From an uncultured bacterium (GTDB lineage Bacteria; Armatimonadota; UBA5829): a stretch of 64,000 nucleotides of DNA. Shown here piece by piece: positions 1,239 to 60,602 of this stretch; the first letter of the stretch is position 1; every line of letters begins with the position of its first letter. The position numbers and the translations under genes were made by a program. The DNA is taken from positions 14,444 to 78,443 of the forward strand of contig CAWGNL010000101.1 of assembly GCA_963823885.1 (NCBI GenBank), read 5' to 3'. A model generated the notes under the pieces. It saw only the letters and a program-made list of their open reading frames with translations. It ran no database searches and was not told the DNA's origin.

Positions 1239-1383
1239 CTAGTGCTTAGTTGCATAATTGATTGATAGAATGCTGTAACGGGTGTTTCGGGAATCTTGTT
1301 CCCGAAACTAAGTGCGTATCGGGAACAAGATTCCCGATACACCGGCAAGAATACTATTAGCTATTTATGCAAGTAGACACTAG
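1239..1383. mobile_element. 145-bp MITE-like element, copy 1 (19-bp terminal inverted repeats around a double-hairpin core)
   Basis: Ends are CTAGTGCTTAGTTGCATAA ... TTATGCAAGTAGACACTAG. The core is GTTTCGGGAATCTTGTTCCCGAAAC-taagtgcg-TATCGGGAACAAGATTCCCGATAC. A near-identical inverted copy lies at 59297-59441. Confidence 0.75.
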
Positions 1384-1598
1384 CCTGCATTATTCATGTA
1401 ACGCCTGTTTGCGCAGCACTTTGTGCTCCCCTCGCCCTCACGGGAGAGGGGTTGGGGGTGAGGGTGGAACGCCGCGCTCGATGAGCCGGTGCCTGATTAC
1501 AGCGTTTCCCCCTCACCGGCCCTCTCCCGTCCGGGAGAGGGAGCACGTGCGTGGCGAAACCGAAAGGCTGGTCCATCAATTCGTGAATAATGCGGAGG

Positions 1599-2360: not shown

Positions 2361-2919
2361 GATTACACTGTCCTTTCATAAATTAAGATATGACATCCAC
2401 CCCATCGAGCATATTATGTCCCACCCGGGATATGTCGCTACGATCCTTGGCAATGTCATGTATCCGCATACGGATACGGATACGGCAGTAGATTAGCATA
2501 CATCAACTGCCTTGTCAACCACAAGGCGTGCAAAAGTTCACTACCATCGCATTGTTCGTTGTTTGCGTTGCTGTTATTTCGGGAAACCCTTTTCCCGAAA
2601 CGGCAAAAGTGAGACGCAGGAATTCGGCGTGGGTCGAGACCGTTTCGCTGTTACGGCGACCATCGCTCAGTAGCAGCCGCGATAGCGCGCTCCGGGTCGA
2701 TGCGGCGCAGGCGCTATAGTCGGTGACACATTGGCGGGCGGTTTCGGGAAAAGGGGTTTTCCGAAACAACGGAAACGGGATAATGCCGGACCAGCCTAAT
2801 TAATCCAGGCAAGCCCCCGGCTCTGCCAGGTGACTCGTAGCGTTTGACGCATGCGGAAGTCATCCGTCTAGCGCAACGTTACGCTCTTGTCACCCAGGCC
2901 GTAAATACGTCATTCTGAG

Positions 2920-3321
2920 CAAGTGACCTCGGCGTTGCCCCGGTTACATTAGAAAGAAACCAGCCCCGTTGTTTCGGGACACCCTTGTCCCGAAACCAGC
3001 AGTTTCTTAGGAGCGTCGGACCCCGCGCTGCGGAGTCACGTTATAAAGAAACTCACCCCGGCAGGCTATGCTTCGCGGGCGACTGCCCCGAAGCCGCCGG
3101 CATGGGAGGTTTCTTAGGAGCAAGTGACCTCGGCGTTGCCGCGGTTACATTAGAAAGAAACCAGCCCCCGGTGTTTCGGGAATCTTGTTCCCGAAACTGG
3201 GGAGTTTCTTAGGAGCGTCGGACCCCGCGCTGCGGAGTCACGTTATAAAGAAACTCACCCGGCAGGCTATGCTTCGCGGGCGACTGCCCCAAAGCCGGCG
3301 GCATGGAAGGTTTCTTAGGAG
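2920..3321. repeat. Tandem duplication, 2 x ~201 bp, built from nested palindromic modules
   Basis: CAAGTGACCTCGGCGTTGCC...GGTTTCTTAGGAG starts at 2920 and again at 3121. Each unit carries a GTTTCGGGA(N)TCCCGAAAC hairpin and TTTCTTAGGAG / AAGAAACTC motifs. An inverted partial copy lies at ~60940-61140. Confidence 0.8.
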
Positions 3322-4520: not shown

Positions 4521-4643
4521 AAAGCGGTGCTCCGGTTCAGCGTTCTCACTAACCTCAGCGTCTCAGCGATTCTAAGGACGCTGAAGGGAACACCTTCGTA
4601 TCTGGGGAATAATAGCATAACATCCCTCACCCGGAGCAAAGCT

Positions 4644-6439
4644 ATGGCTGACGAGAAGGTTACGCTGACAATAGATGGGCACACGGTCAAGGTCCCCAAG
4701 GGAACGACGGTCATGCAGGCGGCGGAGACGCTTGCCATCCGCATTCCACGGCTCTGCTATCACCCCAGGCTTCACCTCGAAGGCTCCTGCAGGGTCTGCC
4801 TGGTCGATGCGGAAGGCATGCGCAACCCCATCGCGTCGTGTTCTTTCCCCGTGATGGAGGGGATGGTCGTCCACACCAACCCTCCCGAGATCAGGGAGAT
4901 ACGCCGCACGATCGTCGAGCTTTTGGTCGACAACCACCCGATGGACTGCCAGACCTGCGAGCGCGACGGCAACTGCGAGCTTCAATACCTTGCCTATGCC
5001 TGCGGAGTCAGAGAGCGCAATTATCACGGCGAGAAGAAACACTACGAGAAGGATTTCAGCTCCGTTTCGGTGATCCGCGACCCGGATAAGTGCATTCTCT
5101 GCGGCCGCTGCGTGCGGATTTGCGCGGAAGTGCAGGGGGTCTCCGCGCTGGGCTACGTCAATCGAGGTTTCAAGACCAACGTGGCCCCGGCTTACCATGC
5201 GCCATTTGCCGAGAGCGTTTGCATCACCTGCGGGCAGTGCATCAACGTCTGCCCGGTGGCTGCTTTCCTGGAAAAGGATTATACCAGGGATGTGATGGCG
5301 GCGCTGGCGGACCCGGAAATGCACGTGGTCGTCCAGATCGCTCCGAGCGTGAGGGCATCGATCGGGGAGGGGTTCGAACCAGCCGCCGGGGATTCCGATG
5401 ACCGGCCAGACCGTGGCCGCGCTCAGGCGGCTAGGCTTCGACCGGGTATTCGACACCCAAATGGGGGCGGATATGACCGTAATGGAAGAAGCATCGGAGT
5501 TTGTTTATCGGCTGTATCACGGCGGCCCGCTGCCTATCATAACGAGTCTGTTCCTCCGCGTGGATGAAGTTCGCGGAGCATTTCTACCCCGATTTGCTCG
5601 ACAATATCTCCACCACCAAGTCGCCGATGAGCATTCTAGGCTCGCTTGTTAAGACCTACTATGCCGAGAAGAACGGCATCGATCCGGCGAAGATTTTTAG
5701 CGTGGGCGCCATGTGCTGCACGGCGAAAAAATTCGAGTCGTTCAGGCCCGAGCAAAGGCTGCCAGACCTCGACGCGCCGTCGGTGGACCGGGTGCTCACT
5801 ACCCGCGAACTGGTGTGGATGATCAAAAACGCGGGCCTCTCTTTCGTCCATCTCCCGGTCGAGGAGTTCGACCCGGTGCTGGGGATGTCCACGGGCGCGG
5901 GCGCGATCTTCGGGGCGACCGGCGGGCTTGCGGAAGCGGTGTATCGGACGGTCTACTGGCTGCTGACGGGCGAGACGCTGGCCGAGGTCATCGTCCGCGA
6001 GGTCCGGAGCGTGGCGCAGGGGGTCAAGCGCTGGACCGCGAAGGTTGGGGACCGCGAACTGCACTTCGGGGTGGCGCACGGCCTCGGCGACGCGCACAAG
6101 CTGCTCAAAATGGTGCAAAAGGGCGAGGAGGAGTTCCATTTCGTCGAGATTATGGGCTGCCCTGGCGGCTGCATCGGCGGCGGCGGCCAGCCTTATGCTC
6201 GCGCGGGCGAAGGGGTCCCGCTGGACATCGAAAACCTGAAGAAACGCGCCGAGGCGCTTCGCGGCATCGACGCCGGGAAGGTCCTGAAGCGCTCTTATGA
6301 AAATCCGGACGTGGTGAGGGTCTACAAAGATTACCTCGGCGAGCCTCTGAGCGAGAAGTCCAAGAAGCTCCTCCACACCCACTACCTGCCCCGCCTTCCT
6401 CACGGGGTCTGGAACCCCGACGTGCTGAGGACGGATTAG
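4644..6439 (+). CDS. [FeFe]-hydrogenase catalytic subunit, CpI-like multi-cluster architecture; two frame breaks (~5390, ~5562)
   Basis: Three abutting frames: ORFs 4527..5567, 5398..5652 and 5564..6439. Motifs: 2Fe-2S region (CYHPRLHLEGSCRVC), HPMDCQTCERDGNCELQ, two 4Fe-4S motifs (CILCGRCVRIC, CITCGQCINVCP), and H-cluster motifs MCCTAKKFE and EIMGCPGGCIGGGGQP. Start is MADEKVTLTIDGHTV. Confidence 0.8.
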
Positions 6440-9692: not shown

Positions 9693-9834
9693 GCAGCGGG
9701 AACTCGAAGGCCTTGATGCCGGTGACTGCGCCGGATTGTCGTTCCGCCGCATATATGGGGCGGTGCCGTGCGTGCAGCGGGAACTCGAAGGCCTTGATGC
9801 CGGCGACTGCGTCGAATTGTCGTTCCCGCCGCAT
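9693..9834. repeat. Two tandem half-units of the GCAGCGGGAACTCGAAGG...TTGTCGTTCCCGCCGC palindromic family
   Basis: GCAGCGGGAACTCGAAGGCCTTGATGCCGG.GACTGCG.CG.ATTGTCGTTCC(C)GCCGCAT occurs twice, starting at 9693 and 9774. Full-length elements lie at 52391-52581 and 60643-60834. Confidence 0.75.
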
Positions 9835-9906
9835 TTATGGGGGCGATCGCGTTGCGAGTGGGTCCCGACTTTCTGACTTTCGACTATTCCGGAGGAGGCA
9901 AGCAAA

Positions 9907-37850: not shown

Positions 37851-39098
37851 CTATTCGCTATAGTTTCTGCCCACGATCACCGTCACGTCGGCTGCGCCTG
37901 GCGCGTGCGGGACGTCTTCCCTGATATCGTCGCACTTGAGAAGCTTGGCTATCCGCTGCACGGGCTCCGTCTTGCCCTTGTGCGTGATGATGCAGCTTTG
38001 GTCATATTTGAAGTTCGGCGCGTTGCTGGTGCGCGTGACCTCGAAGCCGGCCTTCTTGAGCTGGTCCGCGACCTTATTGGCCATCCCGACAACCCCGCTG
38101 CCGTTCAGGACTTCCACCTTGGCGGAGTCCCCTCCGACGCTGCCCTGGAAAAGCAGATAAGTATTGGCCACCTGAGCTATCTGCTCATAGTCGGGAAGCC
38201 AGTAGCTGGCGTCGTTCTTTCTGCCGGAGCCGCCGGGAAGCAAGACCATCGCTATCTGCTCCGGCTTGATATCCTTGAAATAATCCGCCATTCCCGCCCA
38301 GTCGGACATTTGCATGTCGGAGTATAGGTATTTGCAATCGTAGGCCGTTGCGAGCACCTGCATCCGTTCTCGCTTTGTCGGCATGCTCAGCACGCGGTTT
38401 GCCAAGGCCCGCATGAATACTGCTGGCGAATGGTCCGGCCCGCGGGCACTTTCTTGCCACCCACCATCCTGAACCCGCTGTCGCCGATGCCGGATCGTGC
38501 CGGAACCGCACGTAACCTTCGGCCTGAACTCCGTTCAGGAGCTGCTTTTGGGGGCCGGCATGCGATTTATGTACAGGTCCTGATGGCGGTCCGAGTAGCG
38601 CATATCTTCGTCGACCACAATATATACGCCGCCGACCAGGTCCACCATGCCCCTCAGGCCGGAGCACGTCATATCGACATAATAGTCGATGGGCACGCCC
38701 ACCAGGTCCTGCACTACCTGCTCCGCAAGCTTCGGGCCGCCGATGGCGTTTGCCGCGTTGATTTTGTGCGTCCCGTGACCGGGTATCTCTACCCGGGTGT
38801 CGCGGGGGATGGAAATAGCTCGCACCTCCCTGGTCTGCGTGTCTATCCCGAACAACACGAGGCTGTCCGAAAGGCCGTGTCCGCCATGCTTAGCCCCCGC
38901 GGAGTTGTCCTCGCCAACCATCAGGATTCTGACGTATCTTCCCTTGCCTTGGAACGGCGCGGCGAACAACCCGCCCCAGCCGGTGTGCAAGCTGGTCATG
39001 GAAGGCAGCATCACGGCAAGAAAAGTCCCGCCCGCAATGCCTACCGCCGAGCCAAGCAGAATCACCAGAATTACGGCTATCCAGGACGTACCTTTCAT
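37851..39098 (-). CDS. LytR-CpsA-Psr (LCP) family protein; three or more frame changes between ~38420 and ~38560
   Basis: The N-terminal anchor and LCP core are in ORF 38535..39098 (MKGTSWIAVILVILLG...ILMVGEDN...LSDSLVLFGIDTQTREVRAISIPRDT...). The segment QLLNGVQAEGYVRFRHD is in a second frame and GDSGFR...RTIRQQ in a third. The LytR_C-like end is in ORF 37851..38414. Confidence 0.75.
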
Positions 39099-40640
39099 CA
39101 GTTTACCTTTCTGTCCAAGCCGAGCGCCGGAGAATTGCCGAGGTACCGGGAATCTTGTTCCCGATACGTGATTAGTTTCGGGGACAGATTCCCGAAATAC
39201 CCAATTACGGCTATCCAGGACGTACCTTTCATCAGTTTACCTTTCTGTCCAAGCCGAGCGCCGGAGAATTTGCCGGTGTATCGGGAATCTTGTTCCCGAT
39301 ACGTGATTAGTTTCGGGAACAAGATTCCCGAAATACCCAATTACGGCTATCCAGGACATTACCTTTCATCAGTTTACCCTTCTGTCCAAGCCGAGCGCCG
39401 GAGAAATTGCCGGTGTATCGGGAATCTTGTTCCCGATACGTGATTAGTTTCGGGAACAAGATTCCCGAAACACCCAAATTACGGCTATCCAGGACGTACC
39501 TTTCATCAGTTTACCTGCCGGTGTATCGGGAATCTTGTTCCCGATACGTGATTAGTTTCGGGAACAAGATTCCCGAAATACCCAATTACGGCTATCCAGG
39601 ACGTACCTTTCATCAGTTTACCTTTCTGTCCAAGCCGAGCGCCGGAGAATTTGCCGGTGTACCGGGAATCTTGTTCCCGATACGTGATTAGTTTCGGGAA
39701 CAAGATTCCCGAAATACCCAATTACGGCTATCCAGGACTTACCTTTCATCAGTTTACCTTTCTGTCCAAGCCGAGCGCCGGAGAATTTGCCGGTGTAACG
39801 GGAATCTTGTTCCCGATACGTGATTAGTTTCGGGGACAAGATTCCCGAAATACCCAATTACGGCTATCCAGGACGTACCCTTTCATCAGTTTACCTTTCT
39901 GTCCAAGCCGAGCGCCGGAGAATTTGCCGGTGTATCGGGAATCTTGTTCCCGATACGTGATTAGTTTCGGGAACAAGATTCCCGAAATACCCAATTACGG
40001 CTATCCAGGACGTACCTTTCATCAGTTTACCCTTCTGTCCAAGCCGAGCGCCGGAGAATTTGCCGGTGTATCGGGAATCTTGTTCCCGATACGTGATTAG
40101 TTTCGGGAACAAGATTTCCCGAAACACCCGAAAAACTCTTCAACGCATTCCGGTATCAGATACCTTTGCCGGTGTATCGGGAATCTTGTTCCCGATACGT
40201 GATTAGTTTCGGGAACAAGATTCCCGAAATACCCAAAATACCCAATTACGGCTATCCAGGACGTACCTTTCATCAGTTTACCCTTCTGTCCAAGCCGAGC
40301 GCCGGAGAATTTGCCGGTGTATCGGGAATCTTGTTCCCGATACGTGATTAGTTTCGGGAACAAGATTCCCGAAACACCCAAATTACGGCTATCCAGGACG
40401 TACCTTTCATCAGTTTACCTGCCGGTGTATCGGGAATCTTGTTCCCGATACGTGATTAGTTTCGGGAACAAGATTCCCGAAATACCCAATTACGGCTATC
40501 CAGGACGTACCTTTCATCAGTTTACCCTTCTGTCCAAGCCGAGCGCCGGAGAATTTGCCGGTGTATCGGGAATCTTGTTCCCGATACGTGATTAGTTTCG
40601 GGAACAAGATTCCCGAAACACCCAAACACCCAAACACCCA
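39099..40640. repeat. 1.5-kb tandem array: 10 units of [double-hairpin palindromic core + duplicated 5' end/upstream region of the LCP gene]
   Basis: CCTTTCAT (complement of the LCP ATG) recurs at 39230, 39367, 39504, 39611, 39747, 39884, 40020, 40271, 40408 and 40515. Units are ~134-137 bp or 107 bp, plus one 251-bp unit. The core is GCCGGTGTATCGGGAATCTTGTTCCCGATACGTGATTAGTTTCGGGAACAAGATTCCCGAAATACCC. Confidence 0.9.
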
Positions 40641-42625
40641 AAATTTAGAAATTCGTGCTTACCGTTCCGGTACAATCCCTTTTCCCTAATAAACTCTTCA
40701 ACGCATTCCGGTATCAGATACCTTATCGACTTTCCGGACCGCACCCGCTCGCGCAATTCGGTCGACGAAATGTCCACCGCGGGCATCCGAAGCCTGACAA
40801 TTCGCCCGGCAAAGTCTTCGGGCACCGCCGGGAGCGCATCCGAACACGGCCTGCTTGCGGCGACTATGATTGCCATCTCCGCCAAAGCGTGAGGCTCGCG
40901 CCAGGACATAAGGTTCGCGGCCTCGTCCTCGCCCATCAATAGATAGACGCGAGTTCCCTCGCCATAATCCGCAATTATTTGCCTTACAGTATCTATTGTA
41001 TACGACACGCCGCCGCGGTCAAGCTCCAGCGTGGATGCCTCGAAGTGAGCGTTGCCTTCCACGGCCATACGGACCATCTCGTGGCGCAATCGAGCGTCGG
41101 CGATCGGCTGTCCCGACTTGTGGGGCGGGTCCGCCGCCGTCACGAAAATCACCCGTTCCAGGCCCAACTGCTCCCACGCCTGTTCGGCAAGTATCAGATG
41201 GCCATAGTGAATGGGGTCGAACGTGCCCCCCATCAATCCGATGCTTCGTGTGCGCCCGGGTGTTTCGGGATTTGAGGAGCGAGCACAGTCGTTTGGCATG
41301 CGGCGCAAACGTCGTATTCGCTCCGGAAATCCCGAAACAGTCACGCTGGGCTTTCGCACTTCCATTATCCCCTCGAGCTGCCCGCTGCCCGTAACCACGT
41401 ACTTGTAGGTAGTTATCTCTTCCAGCCCCATCGGCCCGCGAGCGTGGAGTTTCTGGGTCCTGATGCCCATCTCGGCTCCCTTACCAAATTCGTACCCATC
41501 GGTGAAGCGAGTCGACACATTCACGAACACCGCGGCGGCATCCACTTCCTTGCTAAAACGGACGGCCGCGCTGTAATCTTCGGTGACAATCGCCTCCGAG
41601 TGGCCGCTGCCGTATTTGGCGATGTGCGCTATCGCCTCCCCCACTCCGGAGACCACCTTGACCGCCAGGATCAGGTCCAGGTATTCGGTTTCCCAGTCTT
41701 CCTCGGTCGCCTCCGTCAGGCCCGGCACGATGGCGCGCGTTTTCTCGCAGCCGCGAATCTCGACACCGGCGTCGGCCAGGCGCTTACATATATTTGGAAG
41801 AAAGTCAGCGGCAATTTGTTCGCTCACCAGCAAAGTTTCCGCGGCATTACACACGCTGGGGTTCTGTACTTTCGCATTGAATGCGATCTCCCCGGCCATT
41901 CTCGGGTCCGCTTTAGTGTCGACGTAGACGTGACAGTTGCCGTCGCCGTGCTCGATTACCGGGATCGTCGAGTTCTCGACCACCGTCCGAATGAGGCCCT
42001 TGCCCCCGCGCGGGATCAGGCAGTCGATGTAGGCTTTCATATTCATGAGCTCGCGCGCCGCAGCGCGGTCGGTGGTCTCGATGATTTGCACCGCTCCTTC
42101 GGGCACGCCCGCGCACGAAGCAGCCTCGCGGATAAGCCGCGCGATCGCGAGGTTCGAGTTTATCGCCTCGGACCCGCCGCGCAATATGACCGCATTGCCG
42201 GCTTTCAGGCACAGCGCGGCGGCATCGGCGGTGACGTTGGGCCGGGACTCATAAATAATGCCGATCACACCGATCGGCACCCTGACCTTGCGGACTTCCA
42301 TCCCGTTGGGCCGGATATAGCCCTCGATGGTCTCGCCAACGGGATCGCGCAGGCCCGCTATCTGCCGCACGCCATCAGCCATCTGGGCGATCTTTTTATC
42401 GGTAAGCTCCAGGCGCTTTAGCATGGCCCCGCTCAGGCCGGCGGCTTGGGCCGCGGCGAGGTCCCTTTTATTAGCTTCAAAAATGGCGGCCTTATTCGCC
42501 TCGAATGCATCCGCCATCGCAAGCAGGGCTTTGTCCTTCACGCTGGTTCCCAGCACGGCCATCTCGCGCGCCGCGGCCTTCGCCTGCTTGCATTTGAGTT
42601 CTACTTCGCTCACTTCCGACTCCAC
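40592..42625 (-). CDS. proA: Single 677-codon ORF: gamma-glutamyl-phosphate reductase (ProA, ~41372-42625) read through a repeat-derived linker into nicotinate-nucleotide adenylyltransferase (NadD, ~40650-41251)
   Basis: ProA: ...IGIIYESRPNVTADAAALCLKAGNAVILRGGSEA...CNAAETLLV...TYKYVVTGSGQLE. NadD: IGLMGGTFDPIHYGHL...ISSTELRERV...IRYLIPECVEEFIREKGLY. The linker VTVSGFPERIRRLRRMPNDCARSSNPETPG is encoded by a palindromic repeat (41258-41345). The last ~20 codons also run into repeat DNA. Confidence 0.8.
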   Translation of the reverse strand: MESEVSEVELKCKQAKAAAREMAVLGTSVKDKALLAMADAFEANKAAIFEANKRDLAAAQAAGLSGAMLKRLELTDKKIAQMADGVRQIAGLRDPVGETIEGYIRPNGMEVRKVRVPIGVIGIIYESRPNVTADAAALCLKAGNAVILRGGSEAINSNLAIARLIREAASCAGVPEGAVQIIETTDRAAARELMNMKAYIDCLIPRGGKGLIRTVVENSTIPVIEHGDGNCHVYVDTKADPRMAGEIAFNAKVQNPSVCNAAETLLVSEQIAADFLPNICKRLADAGVEIRGCEKTRAIVPGLTEATEEDWETEYLDLILAVKVVSGVGEAIAHIAKYGSGHSEAIVTEDYSAAVRFSKEVDAAAVFVNVSTRFTDGYEFGKGAEMGIRTQKLHARGPMGLEEITTYKYVVTGSGQLEGIMEVRKPSVTVSGFPERIRRLRRMPNDCARSSNPETPGRTRSIGLMGGTFDPIHYGHLILAEQAWEQLGLERVIFVTAADPPHKSGQPIADARLRHEMVRMAVEGNAHFEASTLELDRGGVSYTIDTVRQIIADYGEGTRVYLLMGEDEAANLMSWREPHALAEMAIIVAASRPCSDALPAVPEDFAGRIVRLRMPAVDISSTELRERVRSGKSIRYLIPECVEEFIREKGLYRNGKHEFLNFGCLGVWVFRESCSRN

Positions 42626-43032: not shown

Positions 43033-44151
43033 CTAAACTCCCAGCACCATGTTATCCCTATGAATCACCTCGTCGTAATCCTTGCGCCCGAGAATCTTGG
43101 GTATTTCGCTCGACCGCTTTCCTCTGATAAGCTGGATTTCCGAGGCGGCATAATTCGTGAGGCCCCTGGCGATCCGGCATGAATCTTCATCGACCACCGA
43201 TACCAGGTCGCCCACGTCGAAGCCGCCCTCGCAGCCGGTGATTCCCGCCGCAAGCAGGCTCGTTCCCCTGCCGATAAGCGACTTCTTCGCGCCCTCGTTC
43301 ACCGTCACGCTGCCTTTCACCTGGCCGCCGAACGCCAGCCACCGCTTCCAGTGGCTCAGCCCGTTGAGGCTCGCAAGAAACAGCGTGCCGGCAGGCTTTC
43401 CCGCCACGACATCCACGATCACGTTGGGCCGCGCCGCGCCCGCTATCACCACGCGCACGCCGGAATTGACGGCGATCTTGGCGGCTTCGATCTTGCTCTT
43501 CATTCCACCGCTGCCGCTCGTGCCCACGCCGCCGGCAAGCGCTTCGATATCCGGGGTAATCGATTCCACCCGCTGGAGCAGCGCGCATGGACCGCCGAGC
43601 CTGGGGTCCGAATCGTACAAGCCGTCCACATCGGAGAGGTTCAACAGCACATCGGCGTCGACGCACGCGGCCACAAGCGCGGCCAGGGTGTCATTCTCTC
43701 CAAACTTGATCTCCTCGGTCGCCACGGTGTCGTTTTCGTTGACTATGGGCACCGTGCCGAACCGGAGCAGCGTGCGGAGGGTATTGCGGGCGTTTAGATA
43801 CCTTACGCGGTCGTTTACGTCGTCGCGGGTGAGGAGCACCTGCGCGGGGATAACTCCGTGCCGCGAAAACGCTTCCGCGTAAAGGCTCATCAGCGAACTC
43901 TGCCCGATGGCCGCGCTGGCCTGCAGATCGGGGATGTTTCGGGGACGCTTCGCTAGACCCAGCCGTTCCATTCCGGCCCTGATAGCGCCCGACGAAACCA
44001 GGATCACGCCCTTTCCCCGGTTCTTGACCTCGGCGAGCTGCCCCACCAGCCCCGCCACCTTCGCGCGGTCGAGTGCACCGGAGTCGCCCACGAGGCTGCT
44101 CGTGCCCACCTTGACGACTATTCGATTGACTGATCTGCTAGTATCCTTCAT
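43033..44151 (-). CDS. proB: Glutamate 5-kinase ProB (with PUA domain)
   Basis: MKDTSRSVNRIVVKVGTSSLV...SSGAI..G...VPIVNENDTVATEEIKFGENDTLAALVA... I place the start at ATG complement 44149-44151. The longer ORF-track N-terminus (to 44313) is translated palindromic repeat DNA. Confidence 0.88.
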   Translation of the reverse strand: MKDTSRSVNRIVVKVGTSSLVGDSGALDRAKVAGLVGQLAEVKNRGKGVILVSSGAIRAGMERLGLAKRPRNIPDLQASAAIGQSSLMSLYAEAFSRHGVIPAQVLLTRDDVNDRVRYLNARNTLRTLLRFGTVPIVNENDTVATEEIKFGENDTLAALVAACVDADVLLNLSDVDGLYDSDPRLGGPCALLQRVESITPDIEALAGGVGTSGSGGMKSKIEAAKIAVNSGVRVVIAGAARPNVIVDVVAGKPAGTLFLASLNGLSHWKRWLAFGGQVKGSVTVNEGAKKSLIGRGTSLLAAGITGCEGGFDVGDLVSVVDEDSCRIARGLTNYAASEIQLIRGKRSSEIPKILGRKDYDEVIHRDNMVLGV

Positions 44152-44441
44152 CAGAAAACTCGAACTCCATGCCGTGAATGCGAACGACGTCGCCGTGCTT
44201 ACCGGGTGTTTCGGGAATCTTGTTCCCGAAACTAAGTGCGTATCGGGAACAAGATTCCCGATACACCGGCAACTAAGTGCGTATCGGGAACAAGATTCCC
44301 GATACACCGGCAACGACGTCGCCGTGCTTAAGTGCGTATCGGGAACAAGATTCCCGATACACCGGCTTGACTGATCTGCTAGTATCCTTCATCAGAAAAC
44401 TCGAACTCCATGCCGTGAATGCGAACGACGTCGCCGTGCTT
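44126..44441. repeat. 75-bp perfect direct duplication of the obg-stop/proB-start junction, flanking a 166-bp insert of palindromic hairpins
   Basis: 44126-44200 and 44367-44441 are identical (TTGACTGATCTGCTAGTATCCTTCATCAGAAAACTCGAACTCCATGCCGTGAATGCGAACGACGTCGCCGTGCTT). The insert holds one GTTTCGGGAATCTTGTTCCCGAAAC hairpin and three TATCGGGAACAAGATTCCCGATAC hairpins. Confidence 0.9.
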
Positions 44442-45662
44442 TGCCCCTAAGTCACGCAGGCTCTTTATTACTCCCGTTCTCTCCAGTTGGCGATGCAGCC
44501 GGCGCAAGGCATATTCGTTATTCACATCGGTGCGCATTACCATGACCTCGACGGGCCGGCCCTCGACGACAAACTCCCCGTCGCCGGTCTTTCGCGCTTC
44601 CCACGAGTCCGGGGCCGGCTCGACCGTGAAGCGCACCGCTTTCTCCACGGCGACTTCCTCGCGGGGAAGCTCTTCGAGCAAAGCCGCGACCCTGTACAAA
44701 AGAGGCTGGATGCCATCGCCTGCCAGCGCCGATATTTCGAAGACTTCCAGCCCGCGGCCCTCGAGTTCGACCTCGAGCCGATCGGCGATCTCCCTGGCCC
44801 CAGGCACATCTATCTTGTTGAGCGCGACTATCTGGCCGAGACCGGAGAGCTTCTCGCTGTGGGCCCTGAGTTCGTCGTTAATGGCATCGAAATCGTGCAT
44901 CGGCTCGCGCCCGCTGTAGCCGGAAACGTCGATCAGGTGGACCAGCAGGCGCGTCCTCTCGATGTGGCGAAGGAACTGATGCCCCAGCCCGACGCCTTCG
45001 TGCGCCCCCTCGATAAGGCCGGGCATATCCGCCACCACAAACGAGCTATCCGCCACTTTCACCACGCCCAGGTTCGGCGCCAGGGTAGTAAACGGATAAT
45101 CCGCTATCTTGGGCTTGGCGGCTGAAATCTTGGATATGAGAGTCGATTTTCCAACGCTCGGGTAGCCGATGAGACCCACATCCGCCAGTAGTTTCAGTTC
45201 GAGGACCACTGTGACCTCGTCGATCGGCTCGCCCTTTTCGGCGAACTTGGGGGTCTGCAAAGTGGAGGTCGAAAAGCTCGCATTTCCTCTGCCGCCACCG
45301 CCGCCCTTCGAGGCGACATACTCCTGACCACCGGTTATGAGGTCAGCGGCGGGCTTTTCATCGCCGGCCACATAAACGATCGTGCCGACCGGAACGCGCA
45401 AAACCAGGTCCTCGCCGTTGCGCCCGTGCCTGTCGTTGGGGCCGCCATCCCCTCCCCGCTCGGCCTTATAGTGTTTCTGATAGCGCAAATCGACCAGGGT
45501 GCCAAGCTTGGCATCGGCGCGCAGGATCACACTGCCGCCCCGACCGCCGTCGCCGCCCGAAGGTCCCCCACGCGGCACGAACTTCTCGTGGCGAAAGGCA
45601 ACGATGCCATCGCCCCCGTTACCACCTTTCACGAAGATTTCAACCCGGTCTACAAATTGCAT
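44379..45662 (-). CDS. obg: GTPase Obg/CgtA
   Basis: 427 aa: MQFVDRVEIFVKGGNGGDGIVAFRHEKFVPRGGPSGGDGGRGGSV (Obg fold), G-domain GYPSVGKSTL...DMPGLIEGAHEG..LG, NKID, and an OCT-like C-terminus. Confidence 0.93.
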   Translation of the reverse strand: MQFVDRVEIFVKGGNGGDGIVAFRHEKFVPRGGPSGGDGGRGGSVILRADAKLGTLVDLRYQKHYKAERGGDGGPNDRHGRNGEDLVLRVPVGTIVYVAGDEKPAADLITGGQEYVASKGGGGGRGNASFSTSTLQTPKFAEKGEPIDEVTVVLELKLLADVGLIGYPSVGKSTLISKISAAKPKIADYPFTTLAPNLGVVKVADSSFVVADMPGLIEGAHEGVGLGHQFLRHIERTRLLVHLIDVSGYSGREPMHDFDAINDELRAHSEKLSGLGQIVALNKIDVPGAREIADRLEVELEGRGLEVFEISALAGDGIQPLLYRVAALLEELPREEVAVEKAVRFTVEPAPDSWEARKTGDGEFVVEGRPVEVMVMRTDVNNEYALRRLHRQLERTGVIKSLRDLGAKHGDVVRIHGMEFEFSDEGY

Positions 45663-46040
45663 ATTTTTACGATTGGAAATCTAATCGCGAAAACGCGAAA
45701 TAGTGCGTTTCGGGAAAAGGGTTTCCCGAAACAACAAACAACAAATGACGCTCCGTCTGCATATCCGGCGTACGTGCCACGCGTGCAGCGGGAACTCGAA
45801 GGACTTATGCCAGACGTTGCCTCGGATTGTCGTTCCCGCCGCATAGTGGGCGATTGTGCCCGATTCCAGCGATTCCCCCTCACCCCAGCCCTCTCCCATC
45901 CGGGAGAGGGAGCCCAAAGTGCCGAGTCCAGCGCCGCAATCCTGGACGCATCGTTGCGCCAGAACTCCCCTCGCCCTCACGGGAGAGGGGCCGGGGGTGA
46001 GGGTGGAACGCCGCAAATTGGAAACAGCGCGTTTCCCCGC

Positions 46041-46616
46041 TCACTCGGCCAGCCGGCTCATTACCCAGGCCACGTTCTCCGCGAATCGATCGACCGTTTC
46101 GAGTCCTTCCTTGTCGTTGGACACTTCTCCTGCCTCGCGGCCGAATGCGATGTTCCAGTACGACGACCCGGGCACGATCATATCGTTAATCAGGAACCAG
46201 TAAACAAGCTGGGCGAAGGTGAAGTTTTGTCCGGCTCGCCGCGCAACCGTTATCGCTCCGCCGACTTTCCGTGAGAAAAGGTTGCCGTTGGACCGCGAGG
46301 CATATCCCGCACGGTCCAGAAGCGCCATCATCTGCGGAGTGGCTGACCCGAAATAGACCGGCGAGCCGACGATGATCGCGTCAGCTTCTTTCAACGCGGA
46401 GAAGACGCTGTCGAAGTCATCGTCCTCGATCGCGCACTTGCTGTCCTGCCGCCGGCGACACTCGCCGCACGCGACGCACCCTTTGATGGTCTTGCCGGCC
46501 AGCGTGACGAACTCGGCCTCGATCCCTGCCGATTCGAGCTTCGCCAGAGCCCGCCGTATCAGAATTTCCGTGTTTCCACGACGCCTGGGACTTCCACAGA
46601 TACCAATTGCTTTCAT
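46041..46616 (-). CDS. NADPH-dependent FMN reductase / iron-sulfur flavoprotein-like protein
   Basis: 191 aa: MKAIGICGSPRRRGNTEILI..., Cys cluster CVACGECRRRQDSKC, and GSPVYFGSATPQMMALLDR, a flavodoxin-like fold. Confidence 0.75.
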   Translation of the reverse strand: MKAIGICGSPRRRGNTEILIRRALAKLESAGIEAEFVTLAGKTIKGCVACGECRRRQDSKCAIEDDDFDSVFSALKEADAIIVGSPVYFGSATPQMMALLDRAGYASRSNGNLFSRKVGGAITVARRAGQNFTFAQLVYWFLINDMIVPGSSYWNIAFGREAGEVSNDKEGLETVDRFAENVAWVMSRLAE

Positions 46617-46979: not shown

Positions 46980-49295
46980 ATGGGTGATGGAAGCGATGAA
47001 CTCCTGGACATATTCCTGGCTGAATCGAGGGAGCATCTTGCCGATATAGAAACCGACCTGCTTGCCTTCTTCGTCCTATACGCCACCGACAAGTCCCCTT
47101 CGGAGATCACCGCATTCTTGGGAATCGACGAGGAGAAGATACTGCAGTTCACAAGCGACGAGGATGGCGAGCCTATAGATCCCCCGGTCGAGCCGGAAAC
47201 CGGCTGCGAGGCGCCTGCCGCCGAAGAGCCGCCGCAGCTCGAAAGTGAAGCGGCTCCCGAACTGGTCCGGGAGCAGGTCGAAACCCAGGAGCCATCCGCT
47301 GCGCCCCCAACGGCCCCCAAAGCCAATTCGGCGGTTCCGGCATCGTCGGAGACGAGCCTGCGGGTAAGCGTTCATCTGCTTGAATCGTTGATGAACCTGG
47401 CGGGCGAATTGGTCCTGAGCCGGAACCAACTTCTCGAGTCGATCTCTCAAGACGGACACCCGCCTCATCCACGCCAGCGGCCAGCGCATCGACATGGTGA
47501 CTTCCGAACTGCAGGAAATCGTCATGCTTACCCGAATGCAGCCTGTCGGCAATGTGGTGAACAAGTTCTCACGAGTGATCCGCGACATGGCCCGCGAGTT
47601 GGGCAAACAAATCGACCTTCGCGTCTCGGGCAAGGAAGTCGAGATGGACAAGACCATAATCGAAGGCCTGAGCAATCCTCTTACGCACCTGGTGCGCAAT
47701 GCGGTGGATCACGGTATAGAAGCGCCGGCCGACCGCGTCCGGCTGGGCAAGCCCTCCAGGGGAACGGTGGACATCAACTTTTGTCACAAGGCCGGTCAGG
47801 TAGTCATAGAAATCAAGGACGACGGCAATGGCATCGACGTCCGGAAAGTGACAAAGGCGGCACTGGCGATCATCCCCTCGCTATTGGTGTCGATAGAGGG
47901 CGACAAGTACACCATCCCGCAGGTCAACGTCAGAGAAATGATTTCCGTGGCGGCCGACCAGGTCAAGGAAAGAATTGAAGTCGTCGGCGACGCTGAGGCG
48001 CTCAAGGTGCGCGGCGAGTTGATCCCGATAATGCACCTTGCCAGTGTGCTTGGGATTCAGCGCACTTATGTCGGCGCCGACGGCGAGCGTTATCCGGAAA
48101 GGCGCCTGAGGCTTGCGGACCGCAGGTTGACCAGGGCGAAGCAGTCCGGCACGGGGATTTCCGGCGCGGCGTCAAAATCCGCGAGGCGCAGCAGCCCGAG
48201 GAGCGCTCTCAACACCGTCGTTGTGACCGTCGGAGCGCTGAAATACGCTCTGGTGGTCGAAGAACTGCACGAGACGGTGGAGATCGTTGTCAAACCTCTT
48301 GGAAGGCATCTGAAGGGTTCTCGCGAGTACACCGGCGCAACGATTTTGGGAGACGGGAAGGTGGCGCTGATCCTGGACATCGCCGGGATCGCCGAGAAGG
48401 CAGGCCTGGCGTCCATGGCCGCAAGCGCGCAAACACAAGAGCCGGTGGACGACGAGGCGGTGGCGGATTCGACCGAGGCGCATGCGTTCCTGCTGTTCCA
48501 CAACGGTCAGGACCACTGCGCGGTCCCGTTGGGCCTCGTGGCGCGGGTGGAGCGCGTGAAGGCCGCGCAAGTGCGGACACTGGCCGGGCGGCGCACAGTC
48601 CGGTACCGGGGAGGCAGTCTACCGCTTGTCGCCTTGAGCGACGCGGTCGGCGTCGAGGAGCTTGCAGGCGACGAGGACCCGGTCGTGATCATCTTCGAGG
48701 TGTCCGGTAACGAAATAGGCCTGCTCGCGACGGAGCCGGTCGATATAGTCGAGGCGGAGGTTGCAATCGACGAGTTGGCGCTCAGGCAGACCGGCATATT
48801 CTGGGTTCAGCAATCATCGAAGGTCGCACTACGTTGGTTGTGGATATCTTCGGCTTGGTCCGGGCGGCGCATCCTGAGTGGGTCGAGGCAGCCGCGCCGG
48901 CGCCTGCTTCAAGATCCTCGTCGGCTGTCAGCGTGCTATTGGCCGAGGACTCCGCCTTCTTCCGAAACCAGGTCAAGAAATTCCTGGAAGAGGCCGACTA
49001 TGAAGTTGTCGCCGCCGAAGACGGCCAGCGGGCATGGGATTATCTGAGGAAGAACCCGGACACGATCAAGCTCGTAGTAACCGACATCGAAATGCCCAAT
49101 CTGGACGGCCTCGGCCTCACACAAAACATCAAGTCCGACCCACGACTTTCACACCTGCCGGTGATCGCGCTGACGACGCTGGCTGATCCGGAAGACATGG
49201 CGCGTGGCAAAGCCGTTGGTGTCGACGATTATCAGATCAAGCTGGACAAGGATAAACTGCTGGCCGGCGCAAGAAAACTCTTGAAGGCCGCCTAG
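46980..49295 (+). pseudogene. cheA: CheA-like histidine kinase / CheW / receiver hybrid, degenerate (frame breaks ~47460 and ~48800; Hpt His and ATP-lid/G2 box missing)
   Basis: The dimerisation region is LRVSVHLLESLMNLAGELVLSRNQLL. N-box and G1 are present (NPLTHLVRNAVDHGIE...VVIEIKDDGNGID). The sequence then jumps to LAIIPSLLVSIEGDKYTIPQVNV (CheW-like) with no F/G2 boxes. The C-terminal receiver is SVLLAEDSAFF...VVTDIEMPNLDG...IALT...YQIKL (ORF 48834..49295). Confidence 0.6.
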
Positions 49296-52581: not shown

Positions 52582-52973
52582 GAGCTGCCGTTCTCATGAA
52601 ACTGAGCTGTTCCGTGAGAACGTCCGCCAGAGGACCTCAAAAAAACAGGCTTCGTCGGTATACACCGCGAAGCCCGAGGGAAGGAGGAAAAAGATGGTTT
52701 GTTTGTGCCACTATAATCATTCCATGAGATTCTCCGAAGTCACCAAAGTTTTTTAGCAATCGCGAAGTTTTTTTTCAGCAAAGGGCAGGAATAAGTCCGG
52801 TGGCTTGCTAACTCATGTGCGGGCGGAGACGTTCTGTTTTCGGCAAGGACGCAGCAAACATGTCTGAGCACTCCCGCGAAGAATCTGCTTTTAGCTTACG
52901 GGCGGGATTCGCGCGGCAAGCAAAAGCAGATTCTTCGTCGTGCCTCTTCCTAAGAAACCTCTCCGGTTTCGGG

Positions 52974-53546
52974 AAAAGGGTTTCTCGAAACAACGCGCAC
53001 GCCGGGGCGGTTTCTTAAGGAAACTGCCGCGCAAAATCGCGGTCGGGCGCTCAAAATGACATGGTTTAGGGCCTGGATACATCTTCCCCGATGTTTCGGG
53101 ATTTCGGGCTGATCAGATCCGACGAGCCAGCCTAGGCCAAAATCCCGAAACATCCAAAATGACCTCGCGAAGTTTCGGGATTTCCGGAGCGATTACGACG
53201 TCTGCGCTGTATGCCGAACCGCCGTGCTCGCTCCTCAAATCCCGAAACACCGGGCGTGGAAAAGGGTTTCTCGAAACAACGGGCATGCCGGGGCGGTTTC
53301 TTAAGGAAACTGCCGCGCAAAATCGCGGTCGGGCGCTCAAAATGACATGGTTTAGGGCCTGGATACATCTTCCCCGATGTTTCGGGATTTCGGGCTGATC
53401 AGATCCGACGAGCCAGCCTAGGCCAAAATCCCGAAACATCCAAAATGACCTCGCGAAGTTTCGGGATTTCCGGAGCGATTACGACGTCTGCGCTGTATGC
53501 CGAACCGCCGTGCTCGCTCCTCAAATCCCGAAACACCGGGCGTGGA
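52974..53546. repeat. Tandem duplication, 2 x 286 bp, composed of several GTTTCGGGA...TCCCGAAAC-type hairpins
   Basis: AAAAGGGTTTCTCGAAACAAC starts at 52974 and again at 53260. The units are near-identical through ...CCCGAAACACCGGGCGTGGA. Confidence 0.85.
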
Positions 53547-59296: not shown

Positions 59297-59441
59297 CTAG
59301 TGTCTACTTGCATAAATAACTGATAGCATTCTTGCCGGTGTATCGGGAATCTTGTTCCCGATACGCACTTAGTTTCGGGAACAAGATTCCCGAAACACCC
59401 GGTACAGCGTTCTATCAATCAATTATGCAACTAAGCACTAG
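59297..59441. mobile_element. 145-bp MITE-like element, copy 2 (inverted relative to 1239-1383)
   Basis: CTAGTGTCTACTTGCATAA...double-hairpin core...TTATGCAACTAAGCACTAG. It is near-identical to the reverse complement of copy 1. Confidence 0.75.
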
Positions 59442-59458
59442 TTTCGGAGGTATCGACT

Positions 59459-60602
59459 ATGTTTAAGTGGCGGATTGTTATTGTATCGGTCCTGACGGCG
59501 ATCGCGGTGTCGCAGCTTGGCTGGACGGTGTGCCCCCTTTTCGCCCAGGAAAAGGGAAAGGTCTCTCAAAAAGATCCGGGGAGCGCGGCGCTGTCCAGGA
59601 TCGAGGGTCTGAGTGTCGGCCAAAGGCAGGAGTTTGGCGGGCTGACCGTATTCCCGATCACCGGTGGGAGCATCGGCGGGATCAACTACCTGACGTTCGA
59701 CGATGCCATGCGCAAGGGCGTGCTCATCGTAAGCGAAAAGGGGTCCGGAGAGGTCAATATGGTGTGCGTTCGCAACAAGTCGAGCCAGCCGGTGTTCGTC
59801 ATGGATGGCGAGGAGATCGTAGGCGCCAGGCAGAATCGAATCGTGAACAGCAGCGTGATGATCCCGACAGACAGACTCGTCGAGCCTGCCGGTGAACTGC
59901 GTGGAACACGACCGCTGGATCGGCGCCTCGATGCAGTTCAAAGCCGGCGGGACCCAGCTTTTTGCCAGCGCCCGGCAGGCGAACGATGAAGCCGTAACCA
60001 GAAACTATGCGGCGAGTCCGTCCGAGGGTCCCCAATCGGACCAGACCATGATCTGGAATAAAGTGGCCGGCAAGCGCGCCGCTTTGTCCGTAGGCCCCGA
60101 GTCCGGGCCAATGCACGAGGCATACGCAAAATATGAGGGCGACATCAACGACTACATCAAGCATTTCAGGACGATTGACGGCCAGGTGGGCGCGCTGTTT
60201 GCGATTAATGGCGTCATCATCGGCGCGGACATTTTCGACAAGCACCAGACCTGCGAGAAACTCTTCCCCAAGCTCGTGAAATCCTACGCGCTCGACGCTA
60301 TCGCGTCCAGAGACGCCGCCAAGTCTCACGCGGCGGTTACCGCGCGGCAGGCCAGGGAGTTCCTGCATTCGGCGCTGGCGAAGGGCGTGTCGGTGAGCGA
60401 CTACGCAAGCCCAGGCGAAGGACGCGATGTCCGCATCAAAGGGACGCGAATCAACGGTTCGAGCCTGGTAGACCGAGGTACCCCAGTGCACATTGCGCTG
60501 TTTGCCCTGGCCGAGGAGGCCGATTCGGTCCCGGCGTCCGGCCCAGACTCAGGGATCGGCCCGATTATTCCGGCGACACAGCGAAGAATCTTGCGACAGT
60601 GA
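59459..60602 (+). CDS. DUF6569-like protein with signal peptide; one frame break (~59875)
   Basis: ORFs 59459..59989 and 59892..60602 join as ...NRIVNSSVMIPTDR / SSLPVNCVEHDRWIG... The blocks LTVFPI, YLTFDDAMRKGVLIVSE, VFVMDGEEIVGARQNR and VNCVEHDRW match the family as I remember it. Confidence 0.5.

Follow-up and report, generated by a model that had tools for sequence, protein, structure and literature searches.

A REPIN cluster between two copies of the obg/proB junction in an uncultured member of the Armatimonadota

REPs and REPINs are among the commonest repeats in bacterial genomes, and the REP/REPIN-RAYT systems are those reportedly set out in Nunvar 2010, Bertels & Rainey 2011 and Ton-Hoang 2012. 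Ordered REPIN clusters, of which there are 16 in strain SBW25, are tandem repeats 'including the flanking sequences' (PMC3116915), for which a mechanistic explanation has never been put forward (PMC3337134). Template-switch models for duplications with microhomology at their junctions are established in E. coli (long-distance template-switch, PMC1428787).

The stretch of DNA analysed here, referred to as the window, is 64 kb long and comes from an uncultured bacterium of the Armatimonadota. Between obg and proB in the window there is an insert of hairpins, with a copy of the gene junction on either side. This insert can be identified as a REP/REPIN cluster, that is, one of short palindromic non-autonomous elements mobilised by a HUH/Y1 RAYT. 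As in the REP/REPIN-RAYT systems of Pseudomonas fluorescens SBW25 and the BIMEs of E. coli, there is a multicopy short palindrome with a conserved 5' motif, here CCGGTG, inverted doublets form one long hairpin, and a single small HUH/Y1 gene lies between inverted hairpins. Unlike in those systems, the host belongs to the Armatimonadota, for which no literature description of RAYT systems was found, and the element lies in a former gene overlap rather than in pre-existing extragenic space.

The head-to-tail units of REP or REPIN plus flank in the array at 39137-40623 and at loci L036 and L040 of relatives are like the ordered clusters of Pseudomonas. At obg/proB this likeness extends only to the inner repeat of REPIN plus 18 nt of host; on the outside the order is flank-REPIN-flank rather than (flank + REPIN)n, the outermost junctions are native, and the flank is a coding junction of known ancestral state. 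A short direct duplication beside strong hairpins, with several junctions clustered, is also what template switching or slippage at palindromes produces, but unlike template-switch filler the sequence inserted here is a discrete mobile element whose ends are fixed, and its primary junctions are nearly without microhomology. The islands that tyrosine integrases target to tRNA genes are similarly flanked by a gene-end direct repeat that leaves the interrupted gene whole; here, in contrast, an insert of only 166 bp carries neither integrase nor cargo, and the repeat was copied from the host rather than borne by the element. No report was found of a REPIN splitting overlapping genes through junction duplication, and literature searches, whether for long duplications of a target or for a REP inserted where genes overlap, yielded no precedent. 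The arrangement is a variation on known REP/REPIN biology. An earlier, sequence-only reading of this DNA was right that both genes are preserved, while the mechanism of very long target duplications that it proposed is unsupported.

The element and its RAYT

The repeat unit consists of CCGGTG and a 25-nt palindrome (GTTTCGGGAATCTTGTTCCCGAAAC), with CCGGTG ahead of the palindrome at most sites. Some units stand alone, and others are paired in an inverted doublet with the fold of one long hairpin. There are 33 copies of the 17-nt core in the 64-kb window, where 0.01 would be expected, which excludes chance, and the core scan found the exact core at 30 or more loci, distributed over at least 8 MAGs of the Armatimonadota. 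The arms of the doublet are 28 nt long and 93% complementary; inverted doublets are present in the window and in L007, L008, L017, L027, L032, and L033. All of the window copies are intergenic or in 3'-terminal codons, and reading frames that run into a REP are seen in the nadD tail and in L006 (ORF 1104-2267). The doublet between obg and proB at 44201-44270 is identical at 70 of 70 nt to two other doublets of the window, with sharp ends, which suggests that it moved as a discrete unit.

The candidate mobilising gene that the sequence-only reading had suggested is found in relatives, as RAYTs in L006, L040, and L041, but not in the 64-kb window itself, where Pfam scans of about 40 ORFs revealed no transposase or RAYT. 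In L006, a RAYT of 177 aa (ORF 2281-2814) is flanked by inverted copies of the exact 30-nt hairpin of the window. It carries the motifs PDHVHIL and LDYTHANPV, scores 85.5 bits against NCBIfam NF047646 'REP-associated tyrosine transposase' (cut-off 80) and 24.9 against Pfam Y1_Tnp (cut-off 23), and matches PDB 4er8, the structure of E. coli TnpArep. A tblastn search with an E. coli RayT sequence served only as a lead to L006, the match being then confirmed independently. There are about 120 homologues of this RAYT, several of which are called RayT by JGI. On either side of the RAYTs of L040 and L041 are hairpins that co-vary, having the same foot and another top (GGGAAGCTTGTTCCC in L040, GGGATTTCCAATCCC in L041).

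In L037 (1079-1337), a REPIN-plus-REP on one side and a further REPIN on the other enclose the first ~10 codons of a RAYT (VKWKNIDIGAC), apparently what a deletion has left of the gene. A composite element of ~150 bp with CTAGTG...CACTAG ends and a REPIN at its centre is present twice in the window (1240-1385 and 59297-59443). The two copies are oppositely oriented, and the composite might be a MITE-like vehicle of larger size. An Rfam search of the hairpins matched no known RNA family. A CRISPR array was also considered and rejected, since the would-be spacers were copied from the neighbouring host junction and there is no cas match among the scanned proteins of the window.

The obg/proB junction and its insert

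The features of the locus are as follows.

43033-44151, minus strand: proB (glutamate 5-kinase), intact, residues 1-373 colinear with relatives
44126-44200, minus strand: left junction copy, used by proB, with the ATG at 44151 and GGAG upstream of it; before the ATG, a non-functional copy of the obg tail
44201-44270, unstranded: complete REPIN doublet (two inverted REP hairpins), with 70-nt identity to the doublets at ~59331-59400 and ~1279-1347
44271-44311, unstranded: 41-nt exact tandem duplicate of a half-REPIN (GATAC-type hairpin, loop, and foot)
44312-44329, unstranded: third copy (18 nt) of the obg-side end of the 75-mer, AACGACGTCGCCGTGCTT
44330-44366, unstranded: half-REPIN (loop and GATAC-type hairpin) adjoining the right junction copy
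44367-44441, minus strand: right junction copy, used by obg, with its last 20 codons and TAG stop (44379-44381), then a non-functional copy of the proB start
44379-45662, minus strand: obg (GTPase ObgE, 427 aa), intact, with the C-terminal EFEFSDEGY kept in homologues

The two 75-mers are, as had been claimed, identical (100%), with a start-to-start spacing of 241, and both contain ATGAAGGATACTAG, the 14-nt overlap of the obg stop and the proB start. The reading frames confirm that obg takes its end from the right copy and proB its ATG at 44151 from the left. In the nearest relatives compared, which are Armatimonadota with ~75% Obg identity, the obg/proB junctions are uninterrupted overlaps of 14 nt (L001/L003), 17 nt (L004), and 8 nt (L038), the arrangement that the sequence-only reading had proposed looking for. 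Aligned to these relatives, the obg-side and proB-side copies of the window merge into one gap-free colinear junction, and the comparison shows that obg and proB ancestrally overlapped, by 14 nt. The overlaps in relatives, together with the conservation of the Obg C-terminus among homologues, mean that the element entered a constrained gene overlap. That an element has split overlapping genes while leaving both of them intact, by way of the duplicated junction, is borne out by the junctions of relatives and the colinear merge.

Intermediates with a REP in the obg tail were sought among Obg homologues longer than 429 aa and rejected, as these have their additional residues at the N-terminus or internally and every C-terminus is native. 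The exact Obg of the window was found on one contig only. One homologue, P0039, has at residues ~98-142 an in-frame insert of ~45 aa that is like a translated GC-rich repeat (..HPSPPHTGEGAEG..) and resembles the repeats of the window near 1420-1460. Judging by this case, coding regions may also take up repeats without loss of frame.

The insert between the 75-mers is 166 bp (44201-44366) and has four hairpin units, with cores at 44212, 44244, 44285, and 44340. Its composition of hairpins and a third partial copy of the host junction is as the sequence-only reading had it, but the exact match of the third copy, AACGACGTCGCCGTGCTT (44312-44329), to the obg-side end of the 75-mer is 18 nt rather than 19, the preceding base being different. 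With the full and the partial host copies called A75 and A18, the order on the coding strand is obg_body-A75 / GCCGGTG-hairpin-GCACTT / A18 / GCCGGTG-hairpin-GCACTTAGTT, continuing with GCCGGTG-hairpin-GCACTTA-hairpin-ACCCGGT / A75-proB. Of these blocks, the final one before A75-proB is the complete REPIN, and the one between it and A18 is the exact 41-nt duplicate. The predicted fold of the insert has -57 kcal/mol (z = -8.8). The part consisting of A18 and a REPIN is a tandem duplicate of the REPIN plus the first 18 nt of host, one hairpin of which was later lost. Parsed in this way, as REPIN, 41-nt duplicate, and A18 plus REPIN, the insert has A75-REPIN-A75 as its simplest precursor.

The primary junctions, GTCAA/GCCGG and CCGGT/AAGCA, have a microhomology of 0-1 nt. 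T microhomology of 1-3 nt is present at five of the six host-to-REPIN junctions, and the 5' end of the REPIN, (T)GCCGGTG, is constant across the six different junction contexts, which looks more enzyme-defined than random.

Upstream of obg, the sequence at 45663-46040 is rich in repeats, and the next gene (46041-46616, minus strand) encodes an FMN reductase. In relatives, obg is preceded by rplU and rpmA (L21/L27), neither of which has a match anywhere in the window. The lack of these two genes before obg, and the presence of the FMN reductase gene beyond, indicate that synteny breaks at obg.

Flanking repeats elsewhere and the nadD/lytR array

At 33 other exact-core sites in relatives, the longest direct repeat between the 200-nt flanks is 6-10 nt, compared with 6-19 nt at 170 random controls; this survey is skewed to short-read MAGs, in which long arrays cannot be held, though a 75-nt repeat would still assemble at k = 141. 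A transposon with a fixed target-site duplication would show direct repeats of one characteristic length around most of its copies; here, 33 of the 33 non-window sites are at control level. The lack of long flanking repeats at these sites indicates that duplication of the junction is not a property of insertion. The sequence-only reading had proposed that a single insertion mechanism, characterised by very long duplications of the target, was shared between loci, and held that a general lack of long direct repeats around the core hairpins would speak against it. None of the 33 sites lies within direct repeats longer than 10 nt, as for random controls, and the proposal is not supported.

The mechanism had been proposed to be shared with an array at 39-40.6 kb, between nadD and lytR, on the ground of a similar length of the duplicated host segment. 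The features of the array are given here.

39069-39136, minus strand: native copy of the host segment, with the lytR ATG (39098), the ribosome-binding region, and the former nadD tail
39137-40623, unstranded: array of 12 REPIN doublets and host-segment spacers
40592-40666, minus strand: present 3' end of nadD, running into REPIN H12 (tail ...FRESCSRN and stop)

Eight of the spacers are full copies, of 69-70 nt, of a segment covering the end of nadD and the start of lytR, two are truncated copies (41 nt), one is 78 nt long (a full copy and 9 extra nt), and one is a 38-nt piece copied from ~70 nt inside nadD. The array unit is bounded by AATT on either side. The host segment, A', contains the lytR start and, in the nadD frame, 12 open codons to a TGA that overlaps the lytR ATG, so that nadD and lytR, too, were once tightly joined; their overlap in L001 is 4 nt. 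The order is nadD_body/(REPIN + host)x12/lytR, in which nadD adjoins a REPIN with no host copy between. The architecture is therefore not that of obg/proB, in that nadD no longer has its own tail, its last residues being encoded by the hairpin, which also means that, unlike at obg/proB, the two genes have not both been preserved. To explain the array it is enough that a REPIN inserted 12 codons ahead of the nadD stop and was then amplified in tandem together with its flank, without recourse to a long target duplication. Next to it, proA and nadD form a single frame of 677 aa with a linker of ~45 aa (40592-42625, minus strand), where in L001 they are separate genes with 2 nt between them; the single frame may reflect either a true fusion or the loss of a stop.

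These results bear on whether transposition itself might duplicate 18-75 nt of target, either through the filling in of wide staggered breaks or through a RAYT that joins the 5' end of the REPIN to a nascent 3'-OH, with re-priming upstream. That the insert lies exactly between the two copies, the junction microhomology of 0-1 nt, the constant REPIN 5' terminus in six junction contexts, and the similar sizes of the host segments at the two loci (75 and 68-70 nt) would all fit such a coupling. We nevertheless consider it unlikely, given the 33 other sites without a flanking repeat above background and the array, where nadD adjoins a REPIN with no host copy between them. In addition, Y1 transposases of the IS200/IS605 type, RAYTs included, are known to insert without target duplication. 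A RAYT spread coupled to replication, in which (T)GCCGGTG is joined to a nascent 3'-OH and synthesis resumes 18-75 nt upstream, is in our view quite unlikely. If true, it would explain both A-REPIN-A and the constant 5' terminus in six contexts, as well as the tandem clusters of REPIN and flank in Pseudomonas and E. coli; most of its events would go unseen or be short, with retention of long ones where genes are rescued. The near absence of microhomology and the constant REPIN 5' end are what keep an enzyme-linked route under consideration, if only as an improbable one.

Local duplications are found at further sites. In L036 there are two copies of a REP with a 95-nt flank (125-nt unit), and in L040 (1178-1450) six tandem units of a REP and 31 nt (61 nt), in alternating variants, lie directly upstream of the RAYT, which echoes the REPIN clusters next to the RAYTs of Pseudomonas. 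A metagenome scan for arrays of the exact core found two loci only, L036 and L037. The window itself has five local duplications, every one of them in palindrome-rich DNA, including those at 2917-3321, 9693-9842, and 52972-53546. With the 12-unit array, the 41-nt repeat, L036, and L040, these show that hairpin DNA here is prone to local duplication.

Two of the five have features of their own. The first is a tandem duplication of 201 bp (2917-3321), the copies of which hold different REP variants at one position, GGGACACCCTTGTCCC and GGGAATCTTGTTCCC; this suggests that a REP was replaced in place. In the other, at 52972-53546, a 286-bp unit is present twice, with 99% identity, and contains long hairpins with the REP foot (GTTTCGGGA...TCCCGAAAC) and interiors of ~40-60 nt.

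The frequency of local tandem duplications in the window might suggest that the duplication came first, a 75-nt tandem A-A uncoupling the genes and a REPIN landing later in the new non-coding spacer. Every step would be ordinary and no intermediate deleterious. The REPIN must, however, have hit the joint of the two copies exactly, for which a coordinate-based estimate gives ~1/43 for a random hit in the neutral spacer, and the 18-nt third copy with the same end point would be a second coincidence. This order of events is distinctly improbable.

An assembly artefact, in which the assembler made or altered the repeat structure, is very improbable. The window comes from a MAG, on a single 78.6-kb contig, and cheA, ARPP-1, lytR, and hydrogenase genes look frameshifted, so base-level quality is imperfect. 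Against an artefact, both novel junctions (the end of A with the REPIN, and the REPIN with the start of A) must exist in reads, the outcome is two complete frames that are colinear with relatives, the two 75-mers are identical, the same contig has the 12-unit array, which implies repeat-spanning long reads, and repeats of REP and flank are present in independent assemblies.

The genes cheA (46980-49047), ARPP-1 (59459-60602), and possibly that of the FeFe hydrogenase (4527-6439) are split into overlapping frames, and lytR (37851-39098) has an in-frame stop near 38535 and ~50 residues out of frame. These are either indel errors of long-read assembly or pseudogenes.

Origin of the duplicated junction

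The conserved overlap means that the ancestral sequence is known to the base and that every product junction can therefore be read; a simple tandem duplication is thereby excluded and the range of pathways narrowed. The reading that we favour, with moderate confidence, is transposition of a REPIN followed by duplication of the junction through slippage or template switching at the hairpins, filtered by selection; a copying error at hairpins, rather than an unusual transposase, is the most likely source of the duplication. Such replication-error routes are favoured because long flanking repeats are absent elsewhere and because duplication of a REP with its flank is frequent.

A 70-nt REPIN doublet would have arrived by transposition at the obg/proB junction with its 14-nt overlap, and a replication error at the hairpins would then have duplicated 75 nt of host junction around it. 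This might have been one complex event of slippage or template switching, in which the REPIN was copied and A re-copied. Alternatively, the REPIN might have been in the obg tail, with a tandem duplication of REPIN and A and then the precise loss of the first, obg-proximal REPIN. The insert would have grown by local slippage, through the duplication of the REPIN with 18 nt of host, the loss of one hairpin, and the exact 41-nt duplication, with selection keeping A-REPIN-A. This would be the arrangement seen because it is the only one with the element between overlapping constrained genes in which both frames are whole. We infer the order and number of these steps and the role of selection.

Several points count against the favoured reading. 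A plain duplication of REPIN and flank gives REPIN-A-REPIN-A or A-REPIN-A-REPIN and never A-REPIN-A, so that either an additional, precise loss of a REPIN or an event with several switches has to be assumed. REPIN excisions in Pseudomonas have been reported as mostly asymmetric rather than clean, which counts against a precise loss. The sequence-only reading had itself put forward template switching at hairpins as a possibility, which is compatible with the reading favoured here. The 0-1 nt of microhomology at the primary junctions is weak for slippage. Nor is there a RAYT in the 64-kb window.

The exact junctions could be had without precise excision by recombination between two insertion alleles, one with a REPIN at the proB-side boundary and one with a REPIN at the obg-side boundary, with a crossover within the REPIN, for which ~70 nt of homology is enough for RecA. 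This would require two deleterious insertions within 75 nt in one population, where there is no evidence of a target hotspot, and it is exceedingly improbable.

The locus illustrates one way in which non-coding space, and a possible regulatory hairpin, can arise inside a packed essential operon while function is kept. The cost of the split is that the translational coupling of obg and proB is broken. The duplicated proB start of the right copy opens an ORF of 39 codons (MKDTSRSVKPVYRESCSRY..., 44260-44392, minus strand). A second ORF, of 44 codons (44138-44272, minus strand), leads out of the hairpins into the duplicated obg tail, with its stop on the proB ATG, and could restore translational coupling to proB.
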